From contig NZ_AP027368.1 in assembly GCF_030296015.1 (NCBI RefSeq), positions 3,496,839-3,520,838 of the forward strand: DNA of 24,000 nt, read 5' to 3'. A model generated the notes under the pieces. It was not told where the DNA came from and made no database searches. It saw only the letters and a program-made list of their open reading frames with translations. Shown here piece after piece: positions 7,062-23,489 of this stretch; position 1 is the stretch's first letter; the number at the start of each line of letters is the position of its first letter. The position numbers were made by a program, and so were the translations under genes. This stretch comes from Ferrimonas sp. YFM. GTDB lineage: Bacteria; Pseudomonadota; Gammaproteobacteria; Enterobacterales; Shewanellaceae.

Positions 7062-7184
7062 GGGCGATCAACCACCGGGCCGCGTCGGGCCAAAACTTCA
7101 ACTGCCCCCATTCTCTCCCCTGAAAGCTGAAATTGGGCGGACCCAGATCACAAATCCGCGTCGGACCAGACCTGCCTGGGTAGC

Positions 7185-9137
7185 TTAGGCCGGGGATTTG
7201 CCCTTGGTTTTTCTGCCCTTAACGCTTCGGTTGCCTCTGCCTGAACTGCGGGCCCCCTTTCTGCCGCGCCGACTGGGGGCCGACACCCCTCGCAGGGACT
7301 CCGGCAGGTGCTGCCGGGCACCGGACACCAGCGCCTGAAGCTGTTCGGTCAAAGGACCCATAAACCCCTGATAACTGAGCTGACGCTCCCGTATCGACTC
7401 CAGTGCCGACTCCCAGCGGGCGGTCATATCCGGGGTGGTGGCACTCTCGGGCAAACTGGCGATCAGCGCCCTGCCCGCCTCCGTGGCCCGAATCTGCTTA
7501 CCCTGGCGGGTAAGGAACCCACGTTTGAACAGCAACTCGATGATGCCGGCCCGGGTGGCCTCGGTGCCCAGTCCATCGGTCTCCTTGAGGATGCTCTTGA
7601 GCGCCTTGTCGGTCACATGGGCGGCGATGTTGGTCATGGCCGCCAGCAAAGTGGCGTCGGTAAAGTGCTTAGGAGGCTGAGTCTGCTTCTCCACCACCTC
7701 GCCACGCTGGCAATGAAGAGACTGACCCTCACTCAGTTGAGGCAGATTGGCACTCTCCTCGTCATCACTCTTCTCCTTCTGGGGGAACAACGCCTTCCAG
7801 CCCATCTCCACCGGCACCTTGGCGGCGGCCCGGAACAGGCCGGTGCCTATGGTGACTTCCACCTTGGTTTCATCGAAACGGTAATCGGGGTAGAACTGCA
7901 GCAGATACTGGCGGGCAATCAGCTCATAGAGCTTTCTCTCGTCCGCAGAGAGGCCTCCGGCGCCGCGCTTGTCTGTGGGGATCACCGCATGGTGGGCATC
8001 CACCTTGGCGTCGTTCCACGCCTTGCCCCGTCGGCTGGTGTCCGCCCCCTCAACTGCCTGGGACAGGGCGTCGCTGTTGGCGGCGATGGCGGCGGTGACC
8101 CGGGGAGCGTCCCCATGCTGCTGACTGGGCAGGTGACGGCTGTCGGACCTGGGGTAGGTGATAAGCTGGTGCCGCTCATACAAGGCCTGAGCCAGGTCCA
8201 GCACCCGTTGGGCACTGAAGCCAAAGCGTTTGGCCGCATCGATCTGCAGGGCGGACAGGTTGTAGGGCAACGGTGCCCCCTGACTCTTGCGCTTTTTCGA
8301 CAACGAGGAAACGCTGCCGGGCTGGTCGGTGATGCGCCCGGCCACATTCTCCGCCAGTCCCCGTGCCAGCACCCTGCCCTCCTCATCCATGTAGGGTTTG
8401 CACGCCTCACTGGGTACCCATTTGGCGGTGAACGCCTCGCCCGCCTCGGTAGTGAGATGAGCCAGCACTTCATAAAAGGGCTTGGAAACGAAAGACTCGA
8501 TGGCCAGATCCCGGCGCACCACCAGCCCCAGCAGGGGCGTCTGCACCCGCCCTACGGAGAGCACACCTGAGTAGTTCACCTTGCGCCCCTGCAGGGTGTA
8601 GGCCCGGGTCAGGTTGATGCCATAGAGCCAGTCGGCCCGGGAGCGGGCCAGGGCGGAGACCGACAGGGAAACAAAGTCGCGATTGCTGCGCAGTTGCCCC
8701 AGGGCCCGGGTGACCGCCGCCGGGGTCAGGTCGCTGACCAGCAGTCGTTTCATCCCCTGGCGCTTGGTTTGAGCCACTTTGCAGTGGTGCACCACCTCAT
8801 CCACCAGCAGCTGCCCCTCCCGATCCGGATCGCCGGCGTGCACCAGCTCATCTGCTTGTTTCATCAGCTTGCGCAACACCGTCAGCTGCTTATGACACCC
8901 TTTTCGGGTCTTGAGCTGCCAGTCGGCGGGAACGATGGGCAGGTGTTGTTCCTGCCAGGAGCGCCAGCTTTCGTCATAATCACCGGGCTCTGCCTGCTCC
9001 AGCAGGTGACCGACACACCAACTGACACAATCGCCATTGCCCAGCTCAATGTAGCCCTCATGCTTCTTATGGGGCTTGGGCAGCACGGCGGCGATGGCCC
9101 GCCCCAGGCTGGGTTTTTCGGCGATGTAGAGTCTCAT
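7185..9137 (-). CDS. topB: DNA topoisomerase III
   Basis: The N-terminus MRLYIAEKPSLGRAIAAVLPKPHKK...CVGHLLEQAEP...HAGDPDREGQLLVDEV is close to E. coli TopB. There is a basic C-terminal tail. I prefer ATG 9137 over the ORF-track GTG at 9146. Confidence 0.9.
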   Translation of the reverse strand: MRLYIAEKPSLGRAIAAVLPKPHKKHEGYIELGNGDCVSWCVGHLLEQAEPGDYDESWRSWQEQHLPIVPADWQLKTRKGCHKQLTVLRKLMKQADELVHAGDPDREGQLLVDEVVHHCKVAQTKRQGMKRLLVSDLTPAAVTRALGQLRSNRDFVSLSVSALARSRADWLYGINLTRAYTLQGRKVNYSGVLSVGRVQTPLLGLVVRRDLAIESFVSKPFYEVLAHLTTEAGEAFTAKWVPSEACKPYMDEEGRVLARGLAENVAGRITDQPGSVSSLSKKRKSQGAPLPYNLSALQIDAAKRFGFSAQRVLDLAQALYERHQLITYPRSDSRHLPSQQHGDAPRVTAAIAANSDALSQAVEGADTSRRGKAWNDAKVDAHHAVIPTDKRGAGGLSADERKLYELIARQYLLQFYPDYRFDETKVEVTIGTGLFRAAAKVPVEMGWKALFPQKEKSDDEESANLPQLSEGQSLHCQRGEVVEKQTQPPKHFTDATLLAAMTNIAAHVTDKALKSILKETDGLGTEATRAGIIELLFKRGFLTRQGKQIRATEAGRALIASLPESATTPDMTARWESALESIRERQLSYQGFMGPLTEQLQALVSGARQHLPESLRGVSAPSRRGRKGARSSGRGNRSVKGRKTKGKSPA

Positions 9138-9147
9138 GGCGCTCACT

Positions 9148-9208: not shown

Positions 9209-9967
9209 TCAGCTCAGGCGACGAATCTGCAGGTTGGCGTCCAGACACTTCTTGCAGGAGAGTTTGCTCTTGATGCCCCGGGCGATGTACTCGGAGACCA
9301 TGCTGTCCAGAGTTTCGTACTGCTCCCGGGTAGCGGGCTGTGTCCAGTTGAAGGCGTTGACTATGGTCAGTATCCCCTCCATCTGAGCCTGACTCCGCTG
9401 GGCTTCGACCAGCTTCTCAATCAGCTTGCTCTCGTAGGCGGTGGACTGACCGTAGAGCTGGAAGTAGATCATCTGTGCCAGCAGGAGCAGGCGTTCATCG
9501 CTCTCCTCCAGTACCCCGGAATCCCTGGCCTCGACGGCGAGCATGTGGATCAGATCGAAGAACCGATTGCACCTGAGCTTGAACCTGTCCACCTTTTCGC
9601 AACTGGCCAGCGGCCACACCTTGGAGTTCACCGACACCGCCCGAAGAGACATAAAACTGCTGCTCTTCATCACCGTCTGGTAGGTGGTGACTATGGGCAC
9701 CAGGAAACGCTCCTGAGGGGTAAGCTCAGGGTGAGTATCGAGAATATCCGGAATGTTGTTGGAGGTGGCACTGCGCAAAAACAGACACAGCAACACATCC
9801 TCCTTACTTTCGAAGAACTTGTAGACCGAACCCGTTGAGGTATTGGCCACCTTGGCAATATCGGAGAACTTGAAAGAAATAATTCCCTGTTCTTCAATTA
9901 GTTGCTCAGCTGCATCCAACAATATCTGGCATTTGTTTTCCGCCTGGGGGGTGTTGGGGCATTGCAT
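9209..9967 (-). CDS. TetR/AcrR-family transcriptional regulator
   Basis: The N-terminal HTH reads ILLDAAEQLIEEQGIISFKFSDIAKVANTSTGSVYKFFESKEDVL. It is transcribed divergently from module 1. Confidence 0.85.
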   Translation of the reverse strand: MQCPNTPQAENKCQILLDAAEQLIEEQGIISFKFSDIAKVANTSTGSVYKFFESKEDVLLCLFLRSATSNNIPDILDTHPELTPQERFLVPIVTTYQTVMKSSSFMSLRAVSVNSKVWPLASCEKVDRFKLRCNRFFDLIHMLAVEARDSGVLEESDERLLLLAQMIYFQLYGQSTAYESKLIEKLVEAQRSQAQMEGILTIVNAFNWTQPATREQYETLDSMVSEYIARGIKSKLSCKKCLDANLQIRRLS

Positions 9968-10326
9968 ATTTTATTTCTTCTACAGACCCATTTTCGCAAA
10001 CGTTACCTTTTCAACAGAATTTTTGTTGTGACTGTCTTCAACAATCAAGCTAACCCAGGTCAGTTTTTGAATTTAGCTCATTAATATTTGCCTATCTCGG
10101 TCACAGAGAAAATTTGTTCAGGATCTGGATCATGAAACAAATTTTCAGCCCAAAACCGATGTGAGTCAGCTCTCAATTTCCCGCCTTCTCCCTCTTCATA
10201 GTGAACCTCAATCGCAAGCAGGCTCCAGTATCCTCGCTGACTTCCATTTTTAAGAGGCAAGGAAAATTCGGTGCCCCCTTGCTGGCGCGATTCAACCCGT
10301 TCGCCATTCCAACAGGTGAGAAAACT

Positions 10327-11850
10327 ATGACAACCGACATCAATAAACGCAGCACGCTGAAAATGCTGGGTGCCATGACCCTGACCGGCGCCGCTGCCCC
10401 ATTCGCTGCACAGGCCGGCTCCTGTGACCACTCCAAGGTCCAGTGGGACGACACCTATGAGGTGATCTGCGTAGGGTCCGGCTTTACCGGGCTGGCCGCC
10501 GCCATCGAAGCCAAACGCAAGGGCGCCCGCTCGGTACTGGTGATTGAGAAGATGCCCTATTGCGGCGGCAATGGCGTCATCAACGCAGGTCAGGCCTGCT
10601 TCGCCGACACTCCGCTGCAGAAAAAGCTGGGCATCAAGGACTCCGCAGAGCTGATGGTCAATGACCAGCTCAAGGCAGGGCGCGGCATCGCCAGCCGCGA
10701 GCTGCTGGAGCACAACGCCAAGCTGGGGCCTTACGCCTTCCAGATGACCAAGGAGTGCGGTGCCGTTTACCTAGATTTCTGCCAACAGCCCGGCGGTCAC
10801 TCAGCCCCTCGCAGCCACCAGGTGGTGGAACGCTCAGGAGCTGGCATCATCCGTCCCATGCTGGCTGAATGTGAGCGTCAGGGCATCACGGTGCTGACCC
10901 GCACCAAGTTTGACGATCTGCTGTTCGATGACGCAGGCCATGTCATCGGTGTCCAGGTCACCAAGGGGCACTACCATGACCGCCCTGCCCTGGGTAAGCC
11001 TGCCAAGCTGCGTGCCGCTAAGGGCGTGGTGATGGCTACCGGCGGCTTTACTCAGAACATCCGTCTGCGCATGGCTCAGGACCCCACCCTGACCGAAGAG
11101 GTGGTCTCCACCAATGCCCCCGGCGCCACCGGCGATGGCCTGGTCGCCATGATGAAGGCGGGGGCCAACCCGGTTCACCTGGCCCACATTCAGTCCGGTC
11201 CCTGGGCCTCCCCGGATGAAGGCGGTTTTGGCTACGCGCCCAATTACGCCATCTTCAACTTCCCCCACTCCATCGCCATCGACCTGATGACCGGCCGCCG
11301 CTTTATGAGCGAACTGGCAGACCGAAAAACCCGGGCCGATGCCGAGCTGCAGCGCCGTGATGCCAAAGGCAACCCTCTGCCAGCGATTCTGCTGACCTCC
11401 AAGAAGCACTCCAGCCAAAACCAGCACAGCCTGGATAACGTGCTGGAAGCCAAGGTGGGGTGGGAATTTGACTCGCTGGAAGCCGTTGCCAAGCACTTCG
11501 ACATCCCTCTGGAGCCTCTTAAGGCCCAGGTGAAGGAGTGGAACGGCTATGTGTCTGCAGGCAAGGACACCCAGTTCGGCAAGCCGATGAACCTGACCAA
11601 GGGTAAGGAGATGTCAGCCCCCTACACCGTTATTCGTCTCTGGCCCAAGGTGCATTACTGCATGGGCGGCGTTCAGATCAACACCAAAGCCGAGGTGATC
11701 GCCGCGGCCTCCGGCGAGCCCATTCCCGGTCTGTACGCCGGCGGCGAAGTTGCCGGTGGCGTGCACGGCGTCAGCCGCCTGGGTGGCTGCTCCATTCCCG
11801 ACTGCCTGGCCATGGGTATCACCGCGGCCCGCTCCATCATGACTGCGTGA
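10327..11850 (+). CDS. Periplasmic FAD-dependent enoate (fumarate/urocanate/acrylate-type) reductase flavoprotein, flavocytochrome c flavin subunit (module 1)
   Basis: The dinucleotide fold is YEVICVGSGFTGLAAA. The family motifs VHYCMGGVQINTKAEV and GLYAGGEVAGGVHGVSRLGGCS correspond to HHTMGG and GANRLGG of Shewanella Fcc3 (from memory). I place the start at ATG 10327 (AGGTGAG upstream), giving MTTDINKRSTLKMLGAMTLTGAAAPFAAQA, a Tat-like KR signal. Confidence 0.8.
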   Translation: MTTDINKRSTLKMLGAMTLTGAAAPFAAQAGSCDHSKVQWDDTYEVICVGSGFTGLAAAIEAKRKGARSVLVIEKMPYCGGNGVINAGQACFADTPLQKKLGIKDSAELMVNDQLKAGRGIASRELLEHNAKLGPYAFQMTKECGAVYLDFCQQPGGHSAPRSHQVVERSGAGIIRPMLAECERQGITVLTRTKFDDLLFDDAGHVIGVQVTKGHYHDRPALGKPAKLRAAKGVVMATGGFTQNIRLRMAQDPTLTEEVVSTNAPGATGDGLVAMMKAGANPVHLAHIQSGPWASPDEGGFGYAPNYAIFNFPHSIAIDLMTGRRFMSELADRKTRADAELQRRDAKGNPLPAILLTSKKHSSQNQHSLDNVLEAKVGWEFDSLEAVAKHFDIPLEPLKAQVKEWNGYVSAGKDTQFGKPMNLTKGKEMSAPYTVIRLWPKVHYCMGGVQINTKAEVIAAASGEPIPGLYAGGEVAGGVHGVSRLGGCSIPDCLAMGITAARSIMTA

Positions 11851-11858
11851 GGTACTCC

Positions 11859-12233
11859 ATGAAACTGAAAACGACTCTGGCCATCGCCTTGGCCTTCTCC
11901 ATGCTGGGCGGTGCCCAGGCGGCGACCCTGACCAAGATGGGCGCCAAACAGGGCCGCAGCTTCCATGAATTCAACTACGAGGACGGCTGCAAGAGCTGCC
12001 ACGATCAGGGGATGCGCAAGCCTCCCTCAGATCAGAGCTGTCAGCAGTGCCATGACTTACCAGAACTGATTGAGGCCACTGCCAACAAGGAGAAGCAGTG
12101 GAAAAACCCTCACAACAACATGCACTACGGTGACAAGGTCCCTTGTATCGAGTGCCACGGCGAGCACAAATCCAAAAAGCCCTTGTGCAGTAACTGCCAT
12201 AACTTTGATTTCAAAAACTTTAATGAAAACTAA
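11859..12233 (+). CDS. Small periplasmic tetraheme cytochrome c (module 1)
   Basis: There are four CXXCH motifs (CKSCH, CQQCH, CIECH, CSNCH) in about 100 mature residues. The signal peptide is MKLKTTLAIALAFSMLGGAQA. GAGG lies 5 nt upstream, and the start is 8 nt after the flavoprotein stop. Confidence 0.9.
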   Translation: MKLKTTLAIALAFSMLGGAQAATLTKMGAKQGRSFHEFNYEDGCKSCHDQGMRKPPSDQSCQQCHDLPELIEATANKEKQWKNPHNNMHYGDKVPCIECHGEHKSKKPLCSNCHNFDFKNFNEN

Positions 12234-12245
12234 GTTATAACTTCT

Positions 12246-12278
12246 AAAAAGGCTCCGCAACGGAGCCTTTTTTGTTTT
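12246..12278 (+). terminator. Rho-independent terminator after the module-1 cytochrome gene
   Basis: The sequence is AAAAAGGCTCCG-CAA-CGGAGCCTTTTTTGTTTT (stem 12251-12257 / 12261-12267). Confidence 0.85.
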
Positions 12279-12595
12279 CACCTTTCCTAATAAATGCGCT
12301 CACACCAGTTTGATTGACCAAAATTGAATCAGCATCAAGAAATAAACTAAGCATCATTAAACCCCCAGTTTCTGCTCAAAGCCCACCCCGCACAAAAGCG
12401 CAATAAAACACCACGAAGATCACGAACTTTCAGACTGCCCGGCGAACTTATTCACCCGCAAATCTCACTTTTGAGTCCTTTACGAGGCGGATCATGAAAC
12501 TTTGTTTCTACCAAAAACCAACGTGATCCACTGCGCATTTTATTTACCCCTGCGGCTGAATAATGTCCCTGTCCAAAACAAACACCAAGGAAAAG

Positions 12596-13312
12596 ATGAT
12601 GAAAAAAACTATTGCAGTTGCCGTTTCCTCTATATTTTTGGCTACTCCATTTATTGCCAATGCCAAGGACCATTCTCCTATTCCAACTCCTCTGGTCAGC
12701 TCCACACACGCCCCTGTTTGGGAAATTCCAGAGGAGTGTCGCGATCCTCTGGCTGAGAAATACATCGCCGGTCTGGAGTCCGGTAAATACACCCTGGCCA
12801 ACATCCCTGCCGATGACACCATCGCCAAAGACAAGCGCCACTGGCTGACCTTCGATGAGAGCGGCAAGAACGTGGTTGAGTGTAAAGATGGCGACATCAA
12901 GAACTCTCCCTCCAACTACTGCTGGAAAGAGCTGTCTGACGCCCCCTCCGTCATGGGTATTGTGTCCATGGGCAAAACCGACCACGCCCCTCACTACCAC
13001 CCTCAGGGCGAGTGCTACTACATCGCCAGCGGTAAGACCGAGACCCTGGCTCAGAACCAGATGCAGTCCATCGAGAAGGGGCAGTACTTCTGGATCAACG
13101 ACTACGCCATCCACAACATCCCCAACCTGAACAGCGAAAAGCTGACCATCTTCTACTGGTACCCAGGTGACGCCAACTGGGGCAGCTTCAAGTACCGCTG
13201 GATCGATGACGTGAAGAACCACCAGCCTGCGGAAGCCGCGTTCCACAAGGTGGATGAAATTCGTAAAGCGGCCTGGGGCTACGGCCCATACGGCACCAAC
13301 GAAGAGAAGTAA
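12596..13312 (+). CDS. Periplasmic cupin-domain protein with a cupin DMSP-lyase-like metal/catalytic motif (module 1)
   Basis: The signal peptide is MMKKTIAVAVSSIFLATPFIANA|KD. Cupin motif 1 is GKTDHAPHYHPQGECYYIASG and motif 2 ends in ..YAIHN. In ORF-track numbering the pattern is H144-x-H146-x3-E150-x-Y152 and H184 (E+34). AAGGAAAAG precedes the ATGATG, so the start is 12596 or 12599. Confidence 0.75.
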   Translation: MMKKTIAVAVSSIFLATPFIANAKDHSPIPTPLVSSTHAPVWEIPEECRDPLAEKYIAGLESGKYTLANIPADDTIAKDKRHWLTFDESGKNVVECKDGDIKNSPSNYCWKELSDAPSVMGIVSMGKTDHAPHYHPQGECYYIASGKTETLAQNQMQSIEKGQYFWINDYAIHNIPNLNSEKLTIFYWYPGDANWGSFKYRWIDDVKNHQPAEAAFHKVDEIRKAAWGYGPYGTNEEK

Positions 13313-13324
13313 AACAGGGGTTTC

Positions 13325-14458
13325 ATGACAATGTTTAAACGTACTCAAACAGCACTGGTGATCACCGCTCTGTTGGCCGGTGCCTCCAGCATGGCCGTTC
13401 AGGCCGAAGATGGCATCGACTTCGGTGGCGCAGTGCGCGTTAACTACGGCCTGAAGATGTACAGCGACGCCTCCAAGGATAAGGGCGGCGACCTGAACTT
13501 CGACATTCTGGCGCTGAAGTTTAACGGCAAGAAGGGCGACTGGGGTCTGGCGGCAGAGTACCGCTTCAACTCCTCCACCAACTTCATCAAGTACGGCTAT
13601 GCCTACTATGATATGGCGCCGGAGTGGCAGCTGCAGTTTGGTGTGACCAAGGTACCCTTCGGCAACCCAGGCTTTATCTCCAACAGCTGGTGGTTTGGCC
13701 TGCCTTACTACCTGGGCTTTGAAGATGACTACGACGTAGGCGCCAAGGCCGTCTACAACAGTGGCGCCTGGCAGACCGACATCGCCTTCTTCAAAAACGG
13801 CGAGTACAGCTCCAGCAACAACAAGGCTTACACCCCTGACCTGTTCAGCGGCATGGTCAACGGCACCCAGTACAACAACGAAGAGATCAACCAAATTAAC
13901 CTTCGCCAGGTCTACACCTACAATGAGGGTGACCTGACGGTTAAGGCGGGTGGCTCCGCTGAGTTTGGCCAGATCTACAACAGCAAGACCACAGACACCG
14001 GTGACCGCTACGGTGTGGCTGTCCACCTGGACGCCACCTACCAGGGATGGAATCTGCAGCTGCAAGCGATGCAGTACGAGTTCGATGCAGAGAACCCTGC
14101 CGGCATGGATGGCAACAAGATCGGTGTCGCCGGTGCCGGATGGCAGTGGGAAGTGGCCTCCAAGGGGCAGATCTACTCCCTGAACATTGCCAAGACCATC
14201 CCCACCAGCTTCGGCAGCATCAAGGTCTACAACGACTTTGGCATGCTGACACCGGACGTGGATGACGCCAGCTTTGATGACAGCTTCCAGAACGTGACCG
14301 GTATGGCCATCGCCGCGGGTCCCATCTACATCATGGCGGACTTCATCCAGGGCAAGAACATGACCTTCTCCACCGAGTTGGACGATCATGTTGGCCTGCC
14401 CCAGGCTGGCGACAGCTGGGATCAACGCATCAACATCAACCTGGGTTACTACTTCTAA
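13325..14458 (+). CDS. Predicted outer-membrane beta-barrel porin (module 1 paralogue)
   Basis: The signal peptide is MTMFKRTQTALVITALLAGASSMAVQA|ED. The sequence is rich in alternating aromatic, Gly, Asn and Asp residues and ends in NINLGYYF, as is typical of OM barrels. It starts 13 nt after the cupin stop. It is a paralogue of 20155-21279. Confidence 0.7.
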   Translation: MTMFKRTQTALVITALLAGASSMAVQAEDGIDFGGAVRVNYGLKMYSDASKDKGGDLNFDILALKFNGKKGDWGLAAEYRFNSSTNFIKYGYAYYDMAPEWQLQFGVTKVPFGNPGFISNSWWFGLPYYLGFEDDYDVGAKAVYNSGAWQTDIAFFKNGEYSSSNNKAYTPDLFSGMVNGTQYNNEEINQINLRQVYTYNEGDLTVKAGGSAEFGQIYNSKTTDTGDRYGVAVHLDATYQGWNLQLQAMQYEFDAENPAGMDGNKIGVAGAGWQWEVASKGQIYSLNIAKTIPTSFGSIKVYNDFGMLTPDVDDASFDDSFQNVTGMAIAAGPIYIMADFIQGKNMTFSTELDDHVGLPQAGDSWDQRININLGYYF

Positions 14459-14527
14459 CCCCTTGGGCACCGGGGTGACTGACACCACCCCGGTCCTATT
14501 TATCTATGTGTTTTCATTCCTGACCTT

Positions 14528-14594: not shown

Positions 14595-15434
14595 TCAGTT
14601 AACTTTGGAATTGGCGATCAGCACCTTCACCACCTCCTCATGCTGAGGAGAGATATCGTGACGAACATAGAAGTTGATGGGGCCTTCCACATCGCCCTTG
14701 GTGGGTCCCTGACAGACCTCCAGCTCAGGGTTGCTCTCAATCATCTTCTGCGGGAGCAAGCCAATGCCGATCCCTTTCTGGATCAATTCTTGTGAAAAGT
14801 CCGGCGTATCTATGGTCATCACCCGATAAAAGTCATCGGTCTGATTCAGTGCCAAAGTCAAATCATGCCAGTGATCCCAGACTCTGGAGTGCGTGATGGT
14901 GGGAACCGGTGACGAAAATGTCACCCGCTTAGATTTTGCCCAGTTAAAATAGAGCACATCCAAAATTTGCCGCTTTCGATACTTAGGCTGATTATCAAAC
15001 AGTCCTTCGGTGATCACTATGTCCGCCTCGCCCTTCTCCATCAAGTGCTTCACCAAGGAAAGCTCCCCGGTCTTAATGTGCAGAAATGAGGAATTAAGCA
15101 TCTCAGGGTCAATGATTGGCGCCACGTATTTCAAATAGAGTCTGGGCTGGGTGACAATGGTCAATGGAGACTTATCGACAAGCTGCTGAGATAAGTTTAG
15201 AAAGTTTTTATAGTTATCAATCACATCGATAGCGACCGGATACAAGATCCGACCATTCTCTGACAGGGTCACCTTGCCTTGTCGTCGCTGAAACAGCTCA
15301 ACCCCAAGATCGGACTCCAGTTTTTTAACAAGATTACTGATATTTGGCTGAGATGTATCCAGTAACTCCGCAGCCTTAGAAAAGCTGTCAAATTCAGCCG
15401 AATAATAAAATGCCAATATTGTTTTTATATTCAT
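14595..15434 (-). CDS. LysR-family transcriptional regulator
   Basis: The N-terminal wHTH reads MNIKTILAFYYSAEFDSFSKAAELLDTSQPNISNLVKKLESDLGVELFQR. I place the start at ATG 15434; the ORF-track start at 15443 is a GTG. The gene is divergent from the module-2 flavoprotein and noticeably AT-richer than its neighbours. Confidence 0.85.
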   Translation of the reverse strand: MNIKTILAFYYSAEFDSFSKAAELLDTSQPNISNLVKKLESDLGVELFQRRQGKVTLSENGRILYPVAIDVIDNYKNFLNLSQQLVDKSPLTIVTQPRLYLKYVAPIIDPEMLNSSFLHIKTGELSLVKHLMEKGEADIVITEGLFDNQPKYRKRQILDVLYFNWAKSKRVTFSSPVPTITHSRVWDHWHDLTLALNQTDDFYRVMTIDTPDFSQELIQKGIGIGLLPQKMIESNPELEVCQGPTKGDVEGPINFYVRHDISPQHEEVVKVLIANSKVN

Positions 15435-15667
15435 CGCTCTCACTATCTCCCCGGCAATAGTTTTCTAAAGCAGTGTAAACCCTTCTCTCCTATGAATGAT
15501 CTTGAATTTCCGATTCTGTGATAACGATTTAATCTGATGGCGATTAAGGAACTGCGGTTTCAGCCCTGTTATTGACGCGCCAACCCTCCCTAAGCGTTTC
15601 CTGATAAATTTGCCAGACGCTTTTATCACAAAACATCTGATAAAATACATTTTCTGTTTGGCCCAAT

Positions 15668-15763
15668 TTTTGTGACCTGAGTCGGCGTGGGTATAGCAAT
15701 TTATTATGTCGAGCTATCCCGGAGCTTGTTCACGTTCGGTTTCAGCATTTTTTTCTATGATTT
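15668..15763 (+). promoter_or_regulatory. Conserved 96-nt upstream cassette, copy A (before module-2 flavoprotein gene)
   Basis: An ungapped alignment to 17959-18054 gives 73/96 identities (hand count). Shared elements:
- TTTTGTGAC at the 5' end
- dyad ATAGC-N15-GCTAT (15693-15717)
- a 26-nt core AGCTATCCCGGAGCTT[G/C]TTCACGTTC, matching at 25/26
- CTATGATTT, a possible -10, at the 3' end. Confidence 0.6.
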
Positions 15764-15830
15764 TCTTACCCCCTATTTAACTCCAATACCTGCTACAGCT
15801 CAGGTATTTGGGTCCACCTAAGGAACTGTA

Positions 15831-17336
15831 ATGAAACGTAGAGATCTACTGAAAGCCGCAGCATTAATACCGGCTGCCGCTGCAGTAACCGCTGCTCCGA
15901 CACAGGCATCTCCTATGACCAGAAAGTTTGATGAAGAATACGACCTTGTGATCGTAGGCAGTGGTTTTGCGGGATTGGCTGCGGCTTACTCTGCAAATAA
16001 AAATGGATTAAACAAGATCCTTGTTATAGAAAAGATGGGTGCCTTCGGAGGCAACTCGGCAATCTGTGGTGGCATTGCCTGTATGCCTGATACCCCGCTG
16101 CAGAAAAAACACGGCATCGAAGACTCACCGGAGCTTCTGGTGAAAGATATGCTCAAGGTCGGCCGTGGATTCAACCACCCCGAACTCTGTGAAGCGATGG
16201 CGAAAGGCGCCAGCACCGCCTATGAGATGTTGATGGAGTGTGGTGTTGAGTTCAAAGACAAGCTGATTCGTCTGGGTGGACACAGCGCTCCCCGAGGCCA
16301 CATCCCAACCAATGCCTCCGGAGGCGGCATTGTCGTCCCCATGCACAAATACCTGCTGAACAAAGGGGTTAAATTCCAGAATCGCACCAATGTCTCCGCC
16401 ATCATTCGCGACGATGCAAACAACGTTTGCGGTGTAGAGGTTCAAACAGATTTCGACCCCAATACAGGGAGCGCCAAAGGAGAGATGACCTACGGATCCC
16501 GCCACGGCATTGTGATCGCGACAGGTGGCTGGGGCAACGACAAGAAATTCGTTAAGACCACCATGCCTGCCTACGCAAACTTGAAGGCGAGCGCCCAGCC
16601 AGGGGCCACGGCAGAGATGATTAAGTCACTGCTGTCATTAGGGTCACTGCCCATCATGCTGGACATGTACCAGTTGGGTCCTTGGGGTTCCCCGGATGAG
16701 CGTCCGGCAGGCCCCGGCTCCTTCTTCGCAGATTACGCCTTCAGTGAGGGGATTGCCGTGGATCCCATGACGGGTAAGCGCTTTGTCAACGAGCTGTCAT
16801 CTCGTCGCACCCGCTCCGAAGCTGAGCTGGAGGTAATGAAGAAAGGCACCAAAGCAAAACCAAACTACCCCTTTACCTTCTGTGGTGAGGAGACCACAAA
16901 GCGCTCGGAAGGCTTCCGCGCTGCCTACCGAGACGGAGCAGTGCGAAAGTCAGACTCGGTCGCAGAGCTGGCTAAGCTGCATGGTGTCGATGAGACACAG
17001 TTGGCCCAAACCATCGCAGAGTGGAACGAGATCGTAGAGGGCAAGCCGGATCCCTTTAATAAACCCCTGGACGTAAGAACACAACTCAAGCCGCCCTTCT
17101 ACTCATTCAGGTTGTCACCTGTACTGCACTACTGCATGGGCGGAGTCGCCATTACGGCAGACGCCCAGGTCGTGGATGTGACCACCTGTGAACCGATCAA
17201 TGGGTTGTTTGCCGCGGGTGAGATTACCGGAGGCGTTCACGGAATGGATCGCTTGGGAGGTTGCTCCTCCGTAGACGGTCTGGTCTTTGGTCAAATTGCC
17301 GGCAGGGCCGCTGCAAAATATAAGGCGAATGTGTAA
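15831..17336 (+). CDS. Periplasmic FAD-dependent enoate reductase flavoprotein, flavocytochrome c flavin subunit (module 2)
   Basis: The twin-arginine signal is MKRRDLLKAAALIPAAAAVTAAPTQA. The dinucleotide fold is YDLVIVGSGFAGLAAA. The motifs LHYCMGGVAI and GEITGGVHGMDRLGGCS are shared with 10327-11850, of which it is a paralogue. Confidence 0.85.
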   Translation: MKRRDLLKAAALIPAAAAVTAAPTQASPMTRKFDEEYDLVIVGSGFAGLAAAYSANKNGLNKILVIEKMGAFGGNSAICGGIACMPDTPLQKKHGIEDSPELLVKDMLKVGRGFNHPELCEAMAKGASTAYEMLMECGVEFKDKLIRLGGHSAPRGHIPTNASGGGIVVPMHKYLLNKGVKFQNRTNVSAIIRDDANNVCGVEVQTDFDPNTGSAKGEMTYGSRHGIVIATGGWGNDKKFVKTTMPAYANLKASAQPGATAEMIKSLLSLGSLPIMLDMYQLGPWGSPDERPAGPGSFFADYAFSEGIAVDPMTGKRFVNELSSRRTRSEAELEVMKKGTKAKPNYPFTFCGEETTKRSEGFRAAYRDGAVRKSDSVAELAKLHGVDETQLAQTIAEWNEIVEGKPDPFNKPLDVRTQLKPPFYSFRLSPVLHYCMGGVAITADAQVVDVTTCEPINGLFAAGEITGGVHGMDRLGGCSSVDGLVFGQIAGRAAAKYKANV

Positions 17337-17686
17337 TGAAAAGCTCCATAGTCGTTGCCGCTATCACTGTACTGCTGTCATGGGGAGCCTTAGCCGCGCC
17401 CAAGACGATGAAACCCCACCACGCCGACGCCATGGGCGGCAATATGACTTGTCGCACTTGTCACACCGCCAAAGGTAAATTCCAGCGTCCCAGCGCAGAA
17501 ACCTGCATCGAGTGCCATGGCGGCATGAGCGAGATCCCTATTCAAGCCAACCGCTGGGATAAAGATCCACACGGCTCTCACCACTATGAGGATCTGCTGG
17601 AGTGCACCCTGTGCCACTCAGAGCATCAATCATCGAGAGCAATCTGCTCAGACTGCCATGTGGTCGAATTCTCTAATCTAAAATAG
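17336..17686 (+). CDS. Small periplasmic tetraheme cytochrome c (module 2)
   Basis: There are four CXXCH motifs (CRTCH, CIECH, CTLCH, CSDCH) and a signal peptide MKSSIVVAAITVLLSWGALAA. The start overlaps the flavoprotein stop (TAATG). Confidence 0.9.
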   Translation: MKSSIVVAAITVLLSWGALAAPKTMKPHHADAMGGNMTCRTCHTAKGKFQRPSAETCIECHGGMSEIPIQANRWDKDPHGSHHYEDLLECTLCHSEHQSSRAICSDCHVVEFSNLK

Positions 17687-17721
17687 AGCTGTTTGTAATA
17701 AATCAGAATCGAAATTAATAG

Positions 17722-17800
17722 TGGCTGGAAAGTTGCCTTAGGGTTATTAAATTAACATGGCAACCACCAGCCATTTTCATTTCCAGCCATCTTTTCATTT
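17722..17800 (+). terminator. Long imperfect hairpin followed by a T-rich tandem direct repeat; probable terminator or attenuator after the module-2 cytochrome gene
   Basis: TGGCTGG-AAA-GTTGCC (17722-17737) pairs with GGCAAC-CA-CCAGCCA (17759-17773) around a 21-nt AT-rich loop. It is followed by CCAGCCATTTTCATTT (17767-17782) and CCAGCCATCTTTTCATTT (17783-17800). Either CCAGCCA could pair with the 5' arm. Confidence 0.4.
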
Positions 17801-17958
17801 AGCCACCCCATACCGAACCCTGCCTCAGCAAGCACTAATTAGACTGACTTAATCGACTGTCAAGCCCTTTCTAAACTGATCACTGCGACTCTCTAAAAAA
17901 ATAAAACCTGACATCACAAAAAGGCCATTCAAAAAAACATATTTTTCACCAAGCCTTG

Positions 17959-18054
17959 TTTTGTGACGTAAATCCAGCTCGGCATAGCAAATTCTTATAC
18001 CCAGCTATCCCGGAGCTTCTTCACGTTCATTCTTAATATTTTTCCCTATGATTT
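17959..18054 (+). promoter_or_regulatory. Conserved 96-nt upstream cassette, copy B (before the HAL-like gene)
   Basis: This is collinear with 15668-15763, with the dyad ATAGC-N15-GCTAT at 17984-18008 and the core at 18003-18028. The genes downstream of the two copies are unrelated, so the similarity is not a relic of CDS duplication. Confidence 0.6.
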
Positions 18055-18094
18055 ATCCACACCTAAACGATACAAAGAACCAATGGAGTTCCTG

Positions 18095-19762
18095 ATGAAA
18101 CACGTATTATCAACGAGCATTTGTGCTCTTTCTCTGGCGGTATCCTTCGGCATCCAAGCCGAAACCTTTCAACTGACTGGCCAGGATCTGACTGTCGACC
18201 AACTCTGGGAAGCCGCGGCCAAAGGCAATGACGTTACCCTGAGCCGTGCCGCCTGGAAACGAGTGGAAGACTCCTATCAAACCACCATCGACGCCGCGAA
18301 GAAGGGCATCGAAATCTACGGCCTGACCACCAACTTTGGCGACCTCAAAGATCAGGAAGTAGTCAAAGGCGACATCGAAGCCGAGCCTAACCGCACTAAG
18401 TCCATTGAGTTCAACAAGCGTCAGTTGCGTATTCAGGCCGCCGCAATGGAACCCTACTTCGAAGATCGCATCGTTAAGATGGGTATGATCATCCGTCTGA
18501 ACCAGATGGCAGCCGGCCTGACCGGTATGACCACCGAAACCGCCAAGTACTATCAGACCTTCATCAACAACGATGTCATCCCCATGGTACCTGGTCGCGG
18601 TTCCCCTGGCGTGAACGACCTGAACTGGGCCACTCACATAGGCCTGGCGATGATCGGTGAGTGGGATGTTCACTACAAGGGCAAGAAAGTGCCTGCCACC
18701 AAGGCGATGGCCGACCTGGGCATCAAGCCTCTGGAACCCTTCGGCCTGGATGGCATCTCCATCCTGTCCAACAGCAACATCTCCATGGCCATCACCGTGG
18801 AAGCGATCCAGCAATCCCAGCACCTGCTGGATATCTCTCCCTACATCGTGGCTACCTCGCTGGAGTGTCTGAACGGTAACGTCTCTCCCTTCCTGTGGCA
18901 CTCCATCGAAGGCAAAGGGATGCCCCAGGGGCACGTGGCTGCAGAGCCGATCCTTAAAGCTCTAGAGGGCTCCTTCCTGTGGCAGCCCAATGAAGAGCGC
19001 TACCTGCAGGATCCGCTGACCTTCCGCTCCTCCCACTGGACGCTGGCCGCCGCTCACGAAGAGCTGGACCAGCTGAGAGATCTGGTTGAGAAACAGCTTA
19101 ACCACACCTCTGATAACCCCATGGTGACTATCGAAGGCCGCACCGACATGTGGTACTCCGACACCCCAGTGGTGAAGTCCCTGATGGTCGATCCCAAGAA
19201 GGGCAGCTACGTTAACTCCAACTCCGCCTTCGATAACACTCAAATCGCGATTCAGGTTGAGTCTCTGGCCACAGCCATGGCTCACGTGATTCACAACTCC
19301 GGTTGGCGCAGCCTGCAGGTGGGCATGGACCATCGTACTCACCTGCCCAAGTACCTGGTGGCCAAGTCCAACAAGGGGGGTGACGGTTTCGCCAACATCA
19401 TCCAGGCGATCTCCGGCTACTACGCCGAAGCCGCAGGCTTGACCAACAACGTCACCCTGTACGGTCTGCCGACCTCCAACATCATTGAGGAGACCTACAA
19501 CAACGTGAACGTCACCGCCGAGCGTCTGAAGCAGATGAACGACATCGCCTATGAGGTGTTCTCCTACGAGATTCTGCACATGACCCAAGGTGCCCAGATG
19601 CGTCGCGACGAGCAGGGTTACAAGCTGGGTAAAGGCACCAGTGCTCTGCTGAAGGAATACCGCAAAGTCGTGCCCTTTGTAGACAAGGATCGCCCATTCA
19701 CCAAAGACGTAAACAACGGCGTCAAGTTCCTCAAGCAGCTTGATGTAACTACCCTGCTGTAA
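18095..19762 (+). CDS. Signal-peptide-bearing aromatic-amino-acid-lyase (HAL/PAL) family protein lacking the MIO Ala-Ser-Gly triad (module 2)
   Basis: Family motifs occur along the whole length: IYGLTTNFG (cf. YGINTGFG), LDGISILSNSN (cf. KEGLALLNGT), LQDPLTFRS (cf. QDPYSLRC), TSDNPMV (cf. SDNPLV) and LPTSNIIEE (cf. LPTSANQED). Where HAL has GSVGASGDLAPLAH, this protein has GSPGVNDLNWATH. I place the start at ATG 18095 (GGAG 6 nt upstream), giving MKHVLSTSICALSLAVSFGIQA|ETF. Confidence 0.8.
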   Translation: MKHVLSTSICALSLAVSFGIQAETFQLTGQDLTVDQLWEAAAKGNDVTLSRAAWKRVEDSYQTTIDAAKKGIEIYGLTTNFGDLKDQEVVKGDIEAEPNRTKSIEFNKRQLRIQAAAMEPYFEDRIVKMGMIIRLNQMAAGLTGMTTETAKYYQTFINNDVIPMVPGRGSPGVNDLNWATHIGLAMIGEWDVHYKGKKVPATKAMADLGIKPLEPFGLDGISILSNSNISMAITVEAIQQSQHLLDISPYIVATSLECLNGNVSPFLWHSIEGKGMPQGHVAAEPILKALEGSFLWQPNEERYLQDPLTFRSSHWTLAAAHEELDQLRDLVEKQLNHTSDNPMVTIEGRTDMWYSDTPVVKSLMVDPKKGSYVNSNSAFDNTQIAIQVESLATAMAHVIHNSGWRSLQVGMDHRTHLPKYLVAKSNKGGDGFANIIQAISGYYAEAAGLTNNVTLYGLPTSNIIEETYNNVNVTAERLKQMNDIAYEVFSYEILHMTQGAQMRRDEQGYKLGKGTSALLKEYRKVVPFVDKDRPFTKDVNNGVKFLKQLDVTTLL

Positions 19763-19770
19763 CACCCATC

Positions 19771-19809
19771 AACGGCGAGCAGATGACCTCTCTCTCTGCT
19801 CGCCGTTTT
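19771..19809 (+). terminator. Rho-independent terminator after the HAL-like gene
   Basis: A perfect 12-bp stem AACGGCGAGCAG / CTGCTCGCCGTT (19771-19782 / 19796-19807) is followed by TTCCTGT. The T-tract is weak. Confidence 0.65.
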
Positions 19810-20154
19810 CCTGTATTAATCGACACTAAGAAAAATGATCAGGAGTTTATTCGGGCCAGATAAATTCAAACCCTGAACGACTCCACGCGTCGGAAGCAGA
19901 CGAAAATTTAAACCTGCGAAAATATCAGAACATGTACTAACCATTGATTCCTTATTCGGCCTCATTGTTTAAGGCATCTAAAAAACACAGTGGTTAATAG
20001 AGCATTATTAGTCACCCGCATTTAAGCAACGCCCCAATTGCCAGAAGCGTTTAATAACTCAGCACGCAATATCACCAAACATTGCCTCTGCGATTTTTTA
20101 AAGCTTCTCCATACAAACAAGAGTTAAATCATCTAGCATAATATAGGTGTTTTC

Positions 20155-21279
20155 ATGACAACGTTGAATAAAATCACAGCTGCGCTCTTTGCACTTTCTA
20201 CTCTGACTTGCGCTGGCTCTTATGCCAATGACGCCGAAGATGGCATTGCCATCGGCGGCACCGTCAGAGCCAACTACCAATACAAAGAGTACAGCGACCA
20301 ATCCAAAGACAAAGCTGGCGACCTTAAATTCGATGTCTTAGCCATTAAATTCAATGGCTCCCTCAATGGTATCGGCCTGGCTTCCGAGTATCGCTTCTAC
20401 GAAGGCTATCATATGCTGCTGAATGCCTATGCATATGGTGAAATCGGCGAACAGATACAGGCCACCATTGGACTCACCAAGGTCCCCTTTGGCAATCCCG
20501 GCTACATCTCCAATAGCTTCTGGTTTGGTCTGCCCTACTATCTGGGCTTTGAAGACGACCACGATATGGGGGCCACCCTTCAATTCAGCCATGGCAACTG
20601 GACCACCGATCTGGGCGCCTTTAAGAACGCCGAATACAGCCCTTCAAACAGCCAGCGTTACTCCACCGACATCTACGAGGGCACCATCAACGGCACTCAA
20701 TACAATAACGAGGAGACCAACCAGCTCAACCTGCGTGAAACTTACCTGATAGAGCATGCCTCAGGTCAATCCATTGTGGGGGCATCGGTAGAGTGGGGAC
20801 AGATCTACAACACAGAGACCGGTGACAATGGCGACCGCTATGCCCTGGCTCTGCACCTGGACAGTTCCATCAATGACTGGAATCTGCAGCTTCAGGCCAT
20901 TCAGTATGAGTACGATGCCGCCGATGCCAGTAACCCCAACAAGATCGCCCTGTCAGCCTTTGACTGGCAGTATGAAGTGGCCTCCAAGGGCCAGATCTAC
21001 TCCCTGAATATTGCCAAGACCATCCCAACCAGTTTTGGCAGCATCAAGGTCTACAACGACTTTGGCATGATGACCCCCGATGTGGATGACAGCAGTTACG
21101 ACGACAGCCTGATGAATGTCCTTGGTATGGGCATCTCTGCGGGCCCGACCTACACCTATGTCGACCTGATTTCCGGCAAAAACATGTACGCCGCAGGCAT
21201 CAATGACCATATTGGCCTGCCTCAGGCCGATGATGGCTGGGATCACCGCATCAACATCAACCTGGGGTACTACTTTTAA
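20155..21279 (+). CDS. Predicted outer-membrane beta-barrel porin (module 2 paralogue)
   Basis: The signal peptide is MTTLNKITAALFALSTLTCAGSYA|ND and the C-terminus is NINLGYYF. It aligns end to end with 13325-14458. Confidence 0.7.
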   Translation: MTTLNKITAALFALSTLTCAGSYANDAEDGIAIGGTVRANYQYKEYSDQSKDKAGDLKFDVLAIKFNGSLNGIGLASEYRFYEGYHMLLNAYAYGEIGEQIQATIGLTKVPFGNPGYISNSFWFGLPYYLGFEDDHDMGATLQFSHGNWTTDLGAFKNAEYSPSNSQRYSTDIYEGTINGTQYNNEETNQLNLRETYLIEHASGQSIVGASVEWGQIYNTETGDNGDRYALALHLDSSINDWNLQLQAIQYEYDAADASNPNKIALSAFDWQYEVASKGQIYSLNIAKTIPTSFGSIKVYNDFGMMTPDVDDSSYDDSLMNVLGMGISAGPTYTYVDLISGKNMYAAGINDHIGLPQADDGWDHRININLGYYF

Positions 21280-21339: not shown

Positions 21340-21367
21340 GCCGGCTGACATCAGCCGGCTTTTTTTG
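21340..21367 (+). terminator. Rho-independent terminator after porin 2
   Basis: The sequence is GCCGGCTG-ACAT-CAGCCGGC followed by TTTTTTTG. It is identical to the hairpin at 14528-14547. Confidence 0.8.
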
Positions 21368-21374
21368 TGTCCAT

Positions 21375-21403
21375 TAAAAAACCCCGCCGAGGCGGGGTTT
21401 TGT
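21375..21403 (-). terminator. Terminator hairpin for the minus-strand MCP gene (bidirectional)
   Basis: The plus strand reads AAAAAACCCCGCCGAGGCGGGGTTTTG. It lies just beyond the MCP stop at 21406, and the same 22-mer occurs at 14562-14583. Confidence 0.7.
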
Positions 21404-21405
21404 TG

Positions 21406-23043
21406 TCAGCTCAGTCGGTATCGACCAATCAGGTCCTGCAGTTCGTCGGCCTGAGAGGCGATCTGCTGGCCGACCTGCTGAGCCTCGGAAGCGTTGCGCT
21501 CCACCGATTCGCCCACCTCCTTGACCCGCAGCACATTCTGGCTAATCTCTTCACTGACACGGCTCTGCTCTTCGGCGGCCGCAGCAATCTCCATATTCAT
21601 CTGGCTCAGTTGTCCCACCTCTTCGGTCACCAGGCTGAGCATCTCGTCCACTTCGGTGGCCTGACTGGCACACACGTCGGCAAACTGCTGGCCGTGCTCA
21701 ATGGAGGTAACCGCTTCCTGGCTCTCCTTCTGCAGACGCTCGATCATGGTCTGAATCTGCTGAGTCGACTCCTGGGTGCGGGATGCCAGAGAGCGCACCT
21801 CATCCGCCACCACGGCAAAGCCGCGTCCCTGCTCTCCTGCCCTGGCCGCCTCTATGGCCGCGTTCAGTGCCAGCAGGTTGGTCTGTTCGGCGATGGTACG
21901 AATTACATCCAGAATGGCTCCGATCTCCTGGCTCTCATGCTCGAGGCGCTGCATCACCTGCCCCGAGTGGCTGACCGCCCCCTGAAGCTCGATGATGTTC
22001 TGCTTGGTCTCGTTGAGATTGCGTTTGCTCTCTCCAAGGCGGCCGTTGGTCTCAGCCACATTGCTGGCGGCGACCTGGGCACTGGAACTGACCTGAGAGA
22101 TGGACGCCACCATCTCGGTCATGGCACTGGCCATCTGGTCAGTTTGTGAATTCTGATCATGGATGTCGCTGGCGGTTTCCCCCATCTCCCGCTGCAGGGT
22201 GTGGGACTGGCTGGTCAGCAGAGCAGACACCTGGTGCAACTGATTGAGTATCGACACCTGTTGTTGCTGAAGCTCCTTGGCATCACCGGCCAGTTGGCCA
22301 AGCTCATCCCGCTGCTCCAGACTGAGCCGAGCGGCGAAGTTACCCGATGCCAGCTCACGCAGAAATCCACCGACGCTGCGCATGGGGCGAATGATGAAGC
22401 TGTTGCTCACCATGGCACCCACCACCAGAGCCAGGGCAAAGGCCAGGGCAAGGGCCACCATGGCCAGCATCAGTTGCTGATCCGCATGCAACTGGTGCTC
22501 CTCTACCGCCCGCTCCTGGGCCTGCTCCATCGCCTCCACCAGGGCCTCGAGACTCTGTGCCGGTGCTCTGTCTATGCCTCTGACCAGGGTGTCCGTGCCA
22601 GCGGCATCATAGTCGTTGGCCAGCTGATAGGCCCGACCTTCACGGTATTTTTCACCCAACACCCTGTGCGCCTGGATAAAGGCGTCCAGCTTGCTGGCCA
22701 ACCCGGCATCCAGCTCCCTGAGCATTGTCAGAGTCGCCTCGGCATGATGTTGCACCTTGGCTTCCGCTTTAAGGTACTTACCCCAGTACTTCTCCCTGTC
22801 CTTCTCCTGATAGGTGCGAACCAGGACGTTCTTCCACTCCTGCACCTGAGCTTTGAATTCCACTTCCAGGGTGAGCACCTGCTCCCTGGCCACCACGTCC
22901 TGCTGCAATACCTGCTGGTAATAGCCCACCACAGTAACCTGGCTATAGAGGGCAAAACCTGCCCCAAGGAGCAAAAGCAGCATGCCTACCAGATTGGCAA
23001 ACATCAGTTTCTTGCTAATGCTGAGATGACGGAGAAGCTTCAT
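21406..23043 (-). CDS. Methyl-accepting chemotaxis protein (N-terminal TM + four-helix-bundle-like sensor, HAMP, MCP signalling domain)
   Basis: The highly conserved signalling hairpin is [35 protein letters not shown]. There are two hydrophobic segments (residues about 15-35 and about 195-215). Confidence 0.9.
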
Positions 23044-23489
23044 ATATCGGCCCTTAAATGTTGCTGAGACTCTTGTAATCCGTACGCGGGAACCCCGCTT
23101 TACTGGGGTTAGCGGCAGGGTATCATCAAGCTGTAATGGTATTTTCGGGCCACCTATTCACAGCGTCACACATCCGCCAACATCGGGTTATGACCCTGTA
23201 AAAACAGAGCAAATACACTATTTCTTCATGTTCTTGTACCCATCTGATTTATCTGGCCAATTTCTTACAGGTTTCAGCGACCGGTTAAATTTGAACCAGA
23301 TCACACTCCGCAACACTCGCCCACAGCTAAAGATCTCAAATTAATTGCAGTTAATGGCAAAAAAACCTCCCCTGATTAGATCCAGCGCATTGACCCGGGC
23401 CAGTCCCCTCCATACCTTAGGAGGACAGACCAGCGCCGATGGAGAGGCGTTGGCCGGTAGTAGCCGATGACCACATGGAGTACACCCGC

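Follow-up and report, generated by a model that had tools for sequence, protein, structure and literature searches.

A putative MIO-less trimethylammonia-lyase of the histidine ammonia-lyase family and its flavocytochrome c gene module in Ferrimonas sp. YFM

A HAL-family protein with no MIO triad

This report concerns a gene of Ferrimonas sp. YFM whose product belongs to the histidine ammonia-lyase (HAL) family and lacks the tripeptide from which enzymes of that family form their 4-methylideneimidazole-5-one (MIO) group. The window, by which we mean the whole stretch of 24,000 nucleotides that was analysed (from contig NZ_AP027368.1), contains the gene as an open reading frame (ORF) at 18095-19762 on the forward strand, encoding 555 residues, with a Shine-Dalgarno sequence (GGAG) 6 nt upstream of the ATG at 18095. 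The product is 100% identical to an NCBI entry named 'aromatic amino acid ammonia-lyase [Ferrimonas sp. YFM]'. On the strength of its PF00221 match, alignments, a tree and an AlphaFold2 (AF2) model we assign it instead to the MIO-less lyases of the HAL family, as a putative trimethylammonia-lyase in subclade A of a group that we refer to as the Gln clade.

Homology to the family runs along the full length of the protein, as the earlier note on this DNA had stated. PF00221 spans residues 32-524 and profile positions 1-466 of 466 (E 7.5e-94), and together with the HAL fold of the AF2 model (mean predicted local distance difference test score, pLDDT, 93.8; Foldseek template modelling score TMt 0.92-0.95 to HAL and ergothionase) this match places the lyase in the PF00221 superfamily. 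It does not belong to the MIO-dependent ammonia-lyases and aminomutases: the triad is missing, the loop is one residue short, and the bit scores fall far under the cut-offs of all NCBIfam equivalogs for HAL, for phenylalanine and tyrosine ammonia-lyases (PAL and TAL) and for aminomutases (187 vs 539 bits for hutH). In an alignment of 108 sequences the true HALs read GSVGASGDLAPL where the lyase reads GSPG-VNDLNWA, shorter by one column, with the loop GSPGVNDL (G169-L176, 18599-18622, forward strand) replacing the MIO-forming GSVGASGDL segment; the note had read this replacement, the missing residue and the loss of Ala-Ser-Gly correctly. An alternative triad able to cyclise, a possibility that the same note had raised, was looked for in the whole protein and rejected, since the 555 residues include not one (A/T/S/C)-S-G tripeptide and the lyase therefore contains no alternative MIO precursor.

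Among solved structures the lyase is nearest to ergothionase. The top match by sequence in the Protein Data Bank (PDB) is ergothionase 6s7j (Td_ETL of Treponema denticola; E 2.4e-61, compared with about 1e-30 for HAL), and the top Foldseek match is again 6s7j (E 2e-35, TMt 0.95, root-mean-square deviation 2.2 Å), followed by the HAL of P. putida (HutH, 1b8f; E 6e-29, TMt 0.92). The loop at the MIO position is equal in length to that of ergothionase (RSSIGEGDITTLSH vs RGSPGVNDLNWATH). Identity to HAL is 21-26%, and the equivalents of HAL Tyr53, Gln277, Arg283, Asn313, Phe329 and Glu414 are kept. The retention of Tyr75 (HAL Tyr53) and Arg311 (HAL Arg283), and the presence of Leu308 at the HAL Tyr280 position, had been noted before and agree with our alignments; Leu308 is as in ergothionase. 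The lyase departs from HAL further in having Gln at the His83 position and a leader at its N-terminus. Its greater closeness to ergothionase than to HAL, the absence of the triad, and the conservation of Tyr75, Gln305, Arg311, Asn341, Phe379 and Glu465 place it in the MIO-less trimethylammonia-lyase group.

The first 22 residues (MKHVLSTSICALSLAVSFGIQA, ending in GIQA and followed by Glu; 18095-18160, forward strand) resemble a signal peptide, with one Lys, a hydrophobic 12-residue core with a Kyte-Doolittle mean of 2.3, and an A-x-A-like end. Residue 26 of the lyase aligns with residue 4 of the cytoplasmic ergothionase, so that residues 1-22 are an extension, and they are also the sole low-confidence stretch of the AF2 model (pLDDT about 55). 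Equivalent leaders ending in A-x-A are present in all members of the clade. The leader-like features that had been taken for a classical Sec signal are thus borne out; export to the periplasm itself we infer from these together with the exported partner proteins.

Active-site residues and the published lyases

Exported MIO-less trimethylammonia-lyases that feed an adjacent reductase are a kind of enzyme already described in Shewanella, and the accounts on which we draw are preprints from one group (Bertsova et al. 2025, 10.1101/2025.08.13.670108; Bertsova et al. 2026, 10.64898/2026.04.22.720169; 10.1101/2024.02.11.579808). Swoo_3913 of S. woodyi is a periplasmic, Mg2+-dependent, MIO-less histidine-betaine trimethylammonia-lyase (HBTL) with Asn439 in place of the Lys384 of ergothionase, and its coupled partner is a urocanate reductase of the UrdA type (10.1101/2025.08.13.670108). 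SO_3057 of S. oneidensis is a periplasmic ergothionase, and SO_3299, which has Gln434 for Lys384, shows no activity with either ergothioneine or pure hercynine and acts on N(pi)-methyl-histidine betaine with a kcat/Km of 4e6 M-1 s-1 (10.64898/2026.04.22.720169). Release of trimethylamine and an alpha,beta-unsaturated acid from an N(alpha)-trimethyl amino acid is demonstrated for SO_3057, SO_3299, Swoo_3913 and Td_ETL, an ergothionase, and anaerobic growth on the respective betaines is supported by SO_3057 and Swoo_3913 (10.64898/2026.04.22.720169; 10.1101/2025.08.13.670108). Reduction of the products by the flavocytochromes SO_3056/58 and SO_3300/01 is proposed from models, and Ferrimonas is among the genera listed with such clusters (10.64898/2026.04.22.720169). 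The earlier note had suggested that the protein eliminates a good leaving group and so has no need of MIO, and both the biochemical activity of these homologues and the ranking of ergothionase as best match by sequence and by fold support that suggestion.

Residue roles were taken from two of these preprints, in which Lys384 is described as essential for binding the thiolate of ergothioneine (10.1101/2025.08.13.670108; 10.64898/2026.04.22.720169); Lys384 has index 383 in the PDB entry, and the offset was checked through Tyr54. At the imidazole-binding His position (HAL His83, HBTL His117) the lyase has Gln114 (codon 18434-18436, forward strand), as do 81 of 81 clade members, whereas ergothionases have His. 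At the Lys384 position, which is also that of SO_3299 Gln434 and HBTL Asn439, it has Gln437 (codon 19403-19405, forward strand). The 12 active-site positions known from the literature are all the same in the lyase and in the S. xiamenensis orthologue of SO_3299 (see below), and three of the 12 differ from ergothionase (Gln114 for His, Asn174 for Gly/Ala, and Gln437 for Lys). Tyr75, Gln114, Asn174-Asp175, Ser225, Gln305, Leu308, Arg311, Asn341, Phe379 and Gln437 are common to the whole Gln clade (81 members), and so is Glu465 apart from seven subclade A members that have Asp.

The residue pattern bears directly on the two published alternatives for the substrate. The lyase could be a periplasmic ergothionase like SO_3057, its thiourocanate product then being reduced, and in line with this are the ergothionase as top solved structure and an ergothionase-linked reductase in Ferrimonas balearica (Fig. 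S5 of 10.64898/2026.04.22.720169). We regard this as very improbable. Ergothionases (EC 4.3.1.-) of the Td_ETL/SO_3057 type resemble the lyase in the length of the MIO-less loop, the Tyr base and the carboxylate ligands, but they have Lys384 and His where the lyase has Gln437 and Gln114, and SO_3299, which has the same residue pattern as the lyase, is inactive on ergothioneine. Identity to these ergothionases is 29-31% (31% to Td_ETL), and 35% to the Lys-type lyases of Shewanella. Td_ETL is moreover cytoplasmic and lacks both the 22-residue leader and an insertion of about 20 residues (346-366 of the lyase). The partner reductase points the same way, being 36% identical to SO_3058 and without the SO_3058 sequence in the aligned motif windows.

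A second alternative is that the lyase acts on hercynine (histidine betaine) like Swoo_3913, yielding plain urocanate. This would agree with the missing thiolate-binding Lys and would give a known respiratory acceptor as the product, and Swoo_3913 is likewise MIO-less, of periplasmic type, and set among similar types of neighbouring genes (porin, methyl-accepting chemotaxis protein and flavocytochrome). However, the two are 34% identical, the Asn439 and His117 of Swoo_3913 are Gln437 and Gln114 here, and Swoo_3913 depends on Mg2+. It is partnered by a single-chain reductase with FMN_bind and flavin adenine dinucleotide (FAD) domains, whereas the partner of the lyase is a flavocytochrome c of two subunits in which Ile occupies the position of UrdA Glu177, the residue that binds the imidazole. 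Since SO_3299 is also inactive on pure hercynine, we consider the hercynine alternative improbable. Identification of the lyase as either an ergothionase or an HBTL was rejected for want of their defining residues, and ergothioneine and hercynine, which had been put forward earlier as example substrates, are probably wrong given Gln437 and the inactivity of SO_3299 on both; even taken together they are at best unlikely.

A third possibility is that the protein is a degenerate, non-catalytic HAL homologue, such as a binding protein, and loss of the MIO triad would indeed abolish ordinary ammonia-lyase activity. Yet the 81 clade members show little or no variation in the Tyr75 base, the ligands of the carboxylate and Glu465, conservation is high across phyla, synteny with the reductase is tight, and three MIO-less homologues are highly active. 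We give a pseudoenzyme hardly any credence.

Relatives of the lyase comprise 71 cluster representatives at 50-100% identity (50-77% without the self-match), in Shewanella, Burkholderiaceae and the gut Sutterellaceae (Parasutterella, Sutterella, Turicimonas and Duodenibacillus), and some of the clusters formed at 90% identity hold hundreds of member sequences. In a neighbour-joining tree (Kimura distances computed in numpy, 100 bootstraps) the Gln clade is monophyletic in 100 of 100 bootstraps and the lyase groups within it together with the SO_3299 orthologue. This alignment and phylogeny, proposed earlier as a check, place the protein among MIO-less lyases with Gln in place of both Lys384 and His83 and Asn at the MIO position, a combination invariant in the 81 members. 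Three further MIO-less homologues (P0079, P0080 and P0086) have Val or Ala at the Lys384 position, and a related homologue, 33% identical, is present in Mesorhizobium (locus L020, 6980-8638); these may represent further specificity classes.

The gene module, its two lyase subclades and the proposed function

The lyase gene lies within a module at 14595-21279. Divergent from the rest is a LysR-family regulator (14595-15443, reverse strand; PF00126 HTH_1, E 2e-15), homologues of which (44-58% identical) adjoin the lyase module in loci L001, L002, L003, L008, L013-L015, L021 and L022. The FAD subunit of a periplasmic flavocytochrome c 2-enoate reductase of the SO_3301 type follows (15831-17336, forward strand; TIGR01813, E 3.5e-151), and its leader carries a twin-arginine signal (MKRRDLLK). 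The subunit shows 57% identity to SO_3301, as read with optical character recognition (OCR) noise from the preprint supplement, 36% to SO_3058 and 32% to UrdA; it falls in the SO_3301 clade and retains the SO_3301 Trp284/Asp300 motif (LGPW...FFADY), and its Ile at the UrdA Glu177 position, which binds N(pi), corresponds to Leu in SO_3301. We note that the NCBI model of this reductase (P0114, 473 residues) begins at Met29 and leaves out the twin-arginine leader MKRRDLLKAAALIPAAAAV (15831-15914); the longer ORF is covered in full (100%) by homologues of 500-501 residues, and the NCBI start therefore probably lies too far downstream. The next gene encodes a tetraheme cytochrome c subunit with a Sec signal (17336-17686, forward strand; PF14537, E 8.7e-14; CxxCH at residues 39, 57, 90 and 104), such that a FAD subunit with a twin-arginine translocation (Tat) motif, a four-haem cytochrome and the lyase stand adjacent, as expected of a lyase/flavocytochrome c module.

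Downstream of the lyase is a gene for a 374-residue outer-membrane porin-like protein with a signal peptide and a C-terminal GYYF (20155-21279, forward strand). The protein gave no match in Pfam, NCBIfam or the PDB sequences, and belongs to a family of 374-377 residues with 285 homologues, mostly in Shewanella and Ferrimonas and with several paralogues per genome, members of which are named OprO/OprP-type porin or outer membrane beta-barrel protein by some sources. A strong terminator-like hairpin (21340-21359, forward strand; 8-bp stem with seven GC pairs, then T7) closes the module, and a weak one is present at 17757-17774, in the gap before the lyase gene. Convergent with the module, and possibly associated with it, is a gene for a methyl-accepting chemotaxis protein (MCP; 21406-23043, reverse strand; PF00015, E 3e-44). 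In three Shewanella loci (L013, L014 and L021), one of them from S. schlegeliana, a 37% identical homologue adjoins the lyase, and MCP and topoisomerase III genes are among the frequent lyase neighbours reported previously (Fig. S1 of 10.1101/2025.08.13.670108).

The orthologue of SO_3299 was reached indirectly, through the S. xiamenensis reductase P0123 and its contig; a scan of genome contigs with the clade alignment had returned 21 loci with S. oneidensis not among them, since its back-translated patterns were too strict. P0123 is 83% identical to the OCR-noisy SO_3301. Between der/hisS and xseA/guaB, a region that we take to be SO_3293-SO_3311 in the MR-1 gene order, the S. xiamenensis contig encodes an FAD subunit, a cytochrome c3, a lyase of 549 residues, a 374-residue protein and a LysR regulator. 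This lyase has Gln at residue 434, matching the published SO_3299, and is 56% identical to the Ferrimonas lyase over 526 residues; the gene that follows it encodes a protein 55% identical to the porin-like one. Gene order, Gln434 and these identities together indicate that 14595-21279 is the counterpart of so_3297-so_3301. SO_3299 of S. oneidensis MR-1 and the Ferrimonas lyase, about 55% identical as judged through the S. xiamenensis orthologue, are accordingly alike in being MIO-less with an export leader, in Gln at the Lys384 and His83 positions and Asn at the MIO position, and in neighbours that comprise an FAD subunit, a tetraheme cytochrome, a 374-residue porin and a LysR regulator, with reductases of the same clade and the same Trp/Asp motif. 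More widely, the lyase adjoins an FAD subunit in 17 of the 22 related loci that were fetched, and in all but one of these a cytochrome c3 subunit as well; the remaining five are the locus of the distant Mesorhizobium homologue and four short or truncated contigs from metagenome-assembled genomes (MAGs). In Shewanella the loci also include LysR and, in many cases, the porin. The idea that the lyase product is an enoate for the adjacent reductase, advanced in the earlier note, gains support from this linkage and from the published homologous pairs.

We think it probable that the genes at 14595-21279 form a periplasmic respiratory module that makes its own electron acceptor by means of a betaine-cleaving MIO-less lyase, with chemistry and respiratory role modelled on those of the homologues. 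The porin would admit a histidine-derived betaine to the periplasm, where the Sec-exported lyase would remove trimethylamine by an E1cB/E2-type beta-elimination, with Tyr75 taking the beta-proton and the quaternary ammonium departing without a MIO electrophile. Arg311, Gln305 and Asn341 would hold the carboxylate, and Glu465 together with Gln114 the imidazole. The Tat-exported FAD subunit would then convert the resulting substituted trans-urocanate into the dihydro acid by reduction, with electrons passing from the quinol pool through the tetraheme cytochrome to this subunit in support of anaerobic respiration. The LysR protein would control the module and provide induction, and the MCP may reflect taxis towards the acceptor precursor. 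For the Ferrimonas lyase itself we infer activity, substrate and localisation from residue conservation and synteny; the most likely substrate is an N(alpha)-trimethyl histidine with an imidazole substituent and no 2-thiolate, with N(pi)-methyl-histidine betaine or a close natural analogue as candidates.

Several observations weigh against this interpretation or against a direct transfer from SO_3299. Gaps of about 400 bp (17687-18094 and 19763-20154) flank the lyase gene in an otherwise compact module, so that its co-transcription with the reductase genes is only putative; a scan of the module for promoters found nothing above chance, the gaps contain no convincing promoter or terminator, and an Rfam scan of the window, both gaps included, returned nothing. 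The closest homologue of the lyase (77% identical, from an uncultured Shewanella, locus L001, 6950-11732) precedes a different reductase, 40% identical, whose FAD subunit is without the SO_3301 W...FFADY motif, and this pairing indicates that lyase and reductase types have recombined. N(pi)-methyl-histidine betaine is not known as a natural product (10.64898/2026.04.22.720169). Finally, the lyase lies outside the subclade of SO_3299, the one characterised member of the Gln clade.

The split of the Gln clade into two subclades is new in the present analysis. The lyase belongs to subclade A (97 of 100 bootstraps), sister to a subclade B (77 of 100) that contains SO_3299, and is thus not part of the SO_3299 orthologue group proper. 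Subclade A includes the lyase, its relatives from the uncultured Shewanella, S. atlantica and S. abyssi, and the second copies of three genomes (T. muris, a MAG of Sutterella and a proteobacterial MAG); subclade B includes the SO_3299 orthologue, the lyases of S. schlegeliana and Parasutterella, and the first copies of those three genomes. In Turicimonas muris (L011) the two stand in tandem, 5046-6698 being B and 6986-8665 being A, with a single pair of FAD and cytochrome genes, and tandem A and B genes with one such pair occur in the Sutterella MAG (L005, 5051-8665). The proteobacterial MAG (L004, 2090-6183) also has tandem A and B lyases, on a 7-kb contig with no visible reductase gene. Because A and B lyases stand in tandem in one operon, we argue that they are not functionally redundant; with one reductase, the possibilities are that two substrates feed a single enzyme or that the lyases form heterotetramers. 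Thirty-five positions separate A from B, several of them flanking active-site loops: 171, 173, Trp178 and 179 beside the MIO-position loop, 314 and Trp315 beside the Arg311 loop, 376 and 381 near Phe379, and 438 by Gln437. Trp178, Trp315, His397, Asn452 and others form the signature of subclade A.

How far the two subclades differ in substrate can be argued in both directions. The lyase may be a strict functional equivalent of SO_3299 that cleaves N(pi)-methyl-histidine betaine, A and B differing by descent only, and this would accord with the identity of all 12 known active-site positions in A and B, with an SO_3301-type partner reductase that retains the Trp and Asp, and with a module synteny that extends to porin and LysR. 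It would also accord with Asn381, which the lyase shares with B while the rest of subclade A has Phe or Tyr there. Strict equivalence is nonetheless doubtful, as subclade A stands apart in the tree, A-B identity is 51-57% compared with 68-82% within B across gamma- and beta-proteobacteria, the two forms occur together in single operons, and discriminating residues lie beside two loops, at the MIO position and at Arg311, and beside Gln437. The lyase and SO_3299 may have chemistry and general substrate class in common while subclade A has a substrate of its own. We tentatively suggest that subclade A lyases, namely the Ferrimonas enzyme, those of S. atlantica and S. abyssi, and copy 2 of Turicimonas and Sutterella, recognise a natural betaine other than N(pi)-methyl-histidine betaine, for which ring-modified hercynines (a betaine of the S-methyl-ergothioneine, N(tau)-methyl or ovothiol type, for example) are candidates.

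Other features of the window and wider meaning

A second lyase-reductase module is present at 10201-14458. It consists of a flavocytochrome c FAD subunit (10201-11850), a tetraheme cytochrome (11847-12233), an exported cupin of 249 residues (12563-13312) and a porin paralogue (13325-14458), with a TetR gene upstream (9209-9967, reverse strand). The two porin-like proteins are 59% identical paralogues, one copy following each reductase module. The layout is similar to that of the DddY/ArdAB system of S. woodyi, in which dimethylsulfoniopropionate (DMSP) and acrylate respiration follow the same logic (10.1101/2024.02.11.579808), although the cupin does not clearly belong to the DddY-type lyases. 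A parallel between the two modules, in which the second would cleave a sulfonium compound, had been drawn in the earlier note and is plausible; the best PDB matches of the cupin are to the DMSP lyase DddK and are weak (E about 1e-4). Further upstream are a YjjI-like glycyl radical enzyme and its radical-SAM (S-adenosylmethionine) activase (4624-7061, reverse strand; PF11230, E 8e-198), adjoined by topoisomerase III (7185-9146, reverse strand). Five antisense ORFs (12452-14488, 18110-18934 and 18962-19765 on the reverse strand, 21367-22149 and 22159-23067 on the forward strand) were rejected as genes since each overlaps a gene with homologues, and a family search of three of the five gave no match. 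The ORF at 12452-14488 is a 678-residue shadow over the cupin and porin genes, with no family match.

As regards the Ferrimonas gene, the chief outcome is a correction of its database name, 'aromatic amino acid ammonia-lyase'. Trimethylamine gives rise to trimethylamine N-oxide (TMAO), and TMAO has been linked to cardiovascular disease. Modules of this kind let bacteria respire abundant histidine-derived betaines with release of trimethylamine, and the clade to which the lyase belongs is common in human-gut Sutterellaceae, which gives it a bearing on trimethylamine production in the gut. The paralogous A and B subclades, often side by side, offer a concrete handle for finding the natural substrates. 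Should subclade A prove to act on a distinct betaine, it would represent a fourth specificity class of exported trimethylammonia-lyases, and the A and B pair of gut Sutterellaceae would funnel two betaines into one reductase, as an unrecognised source of trimethylamine and of products like imidazole propionate.

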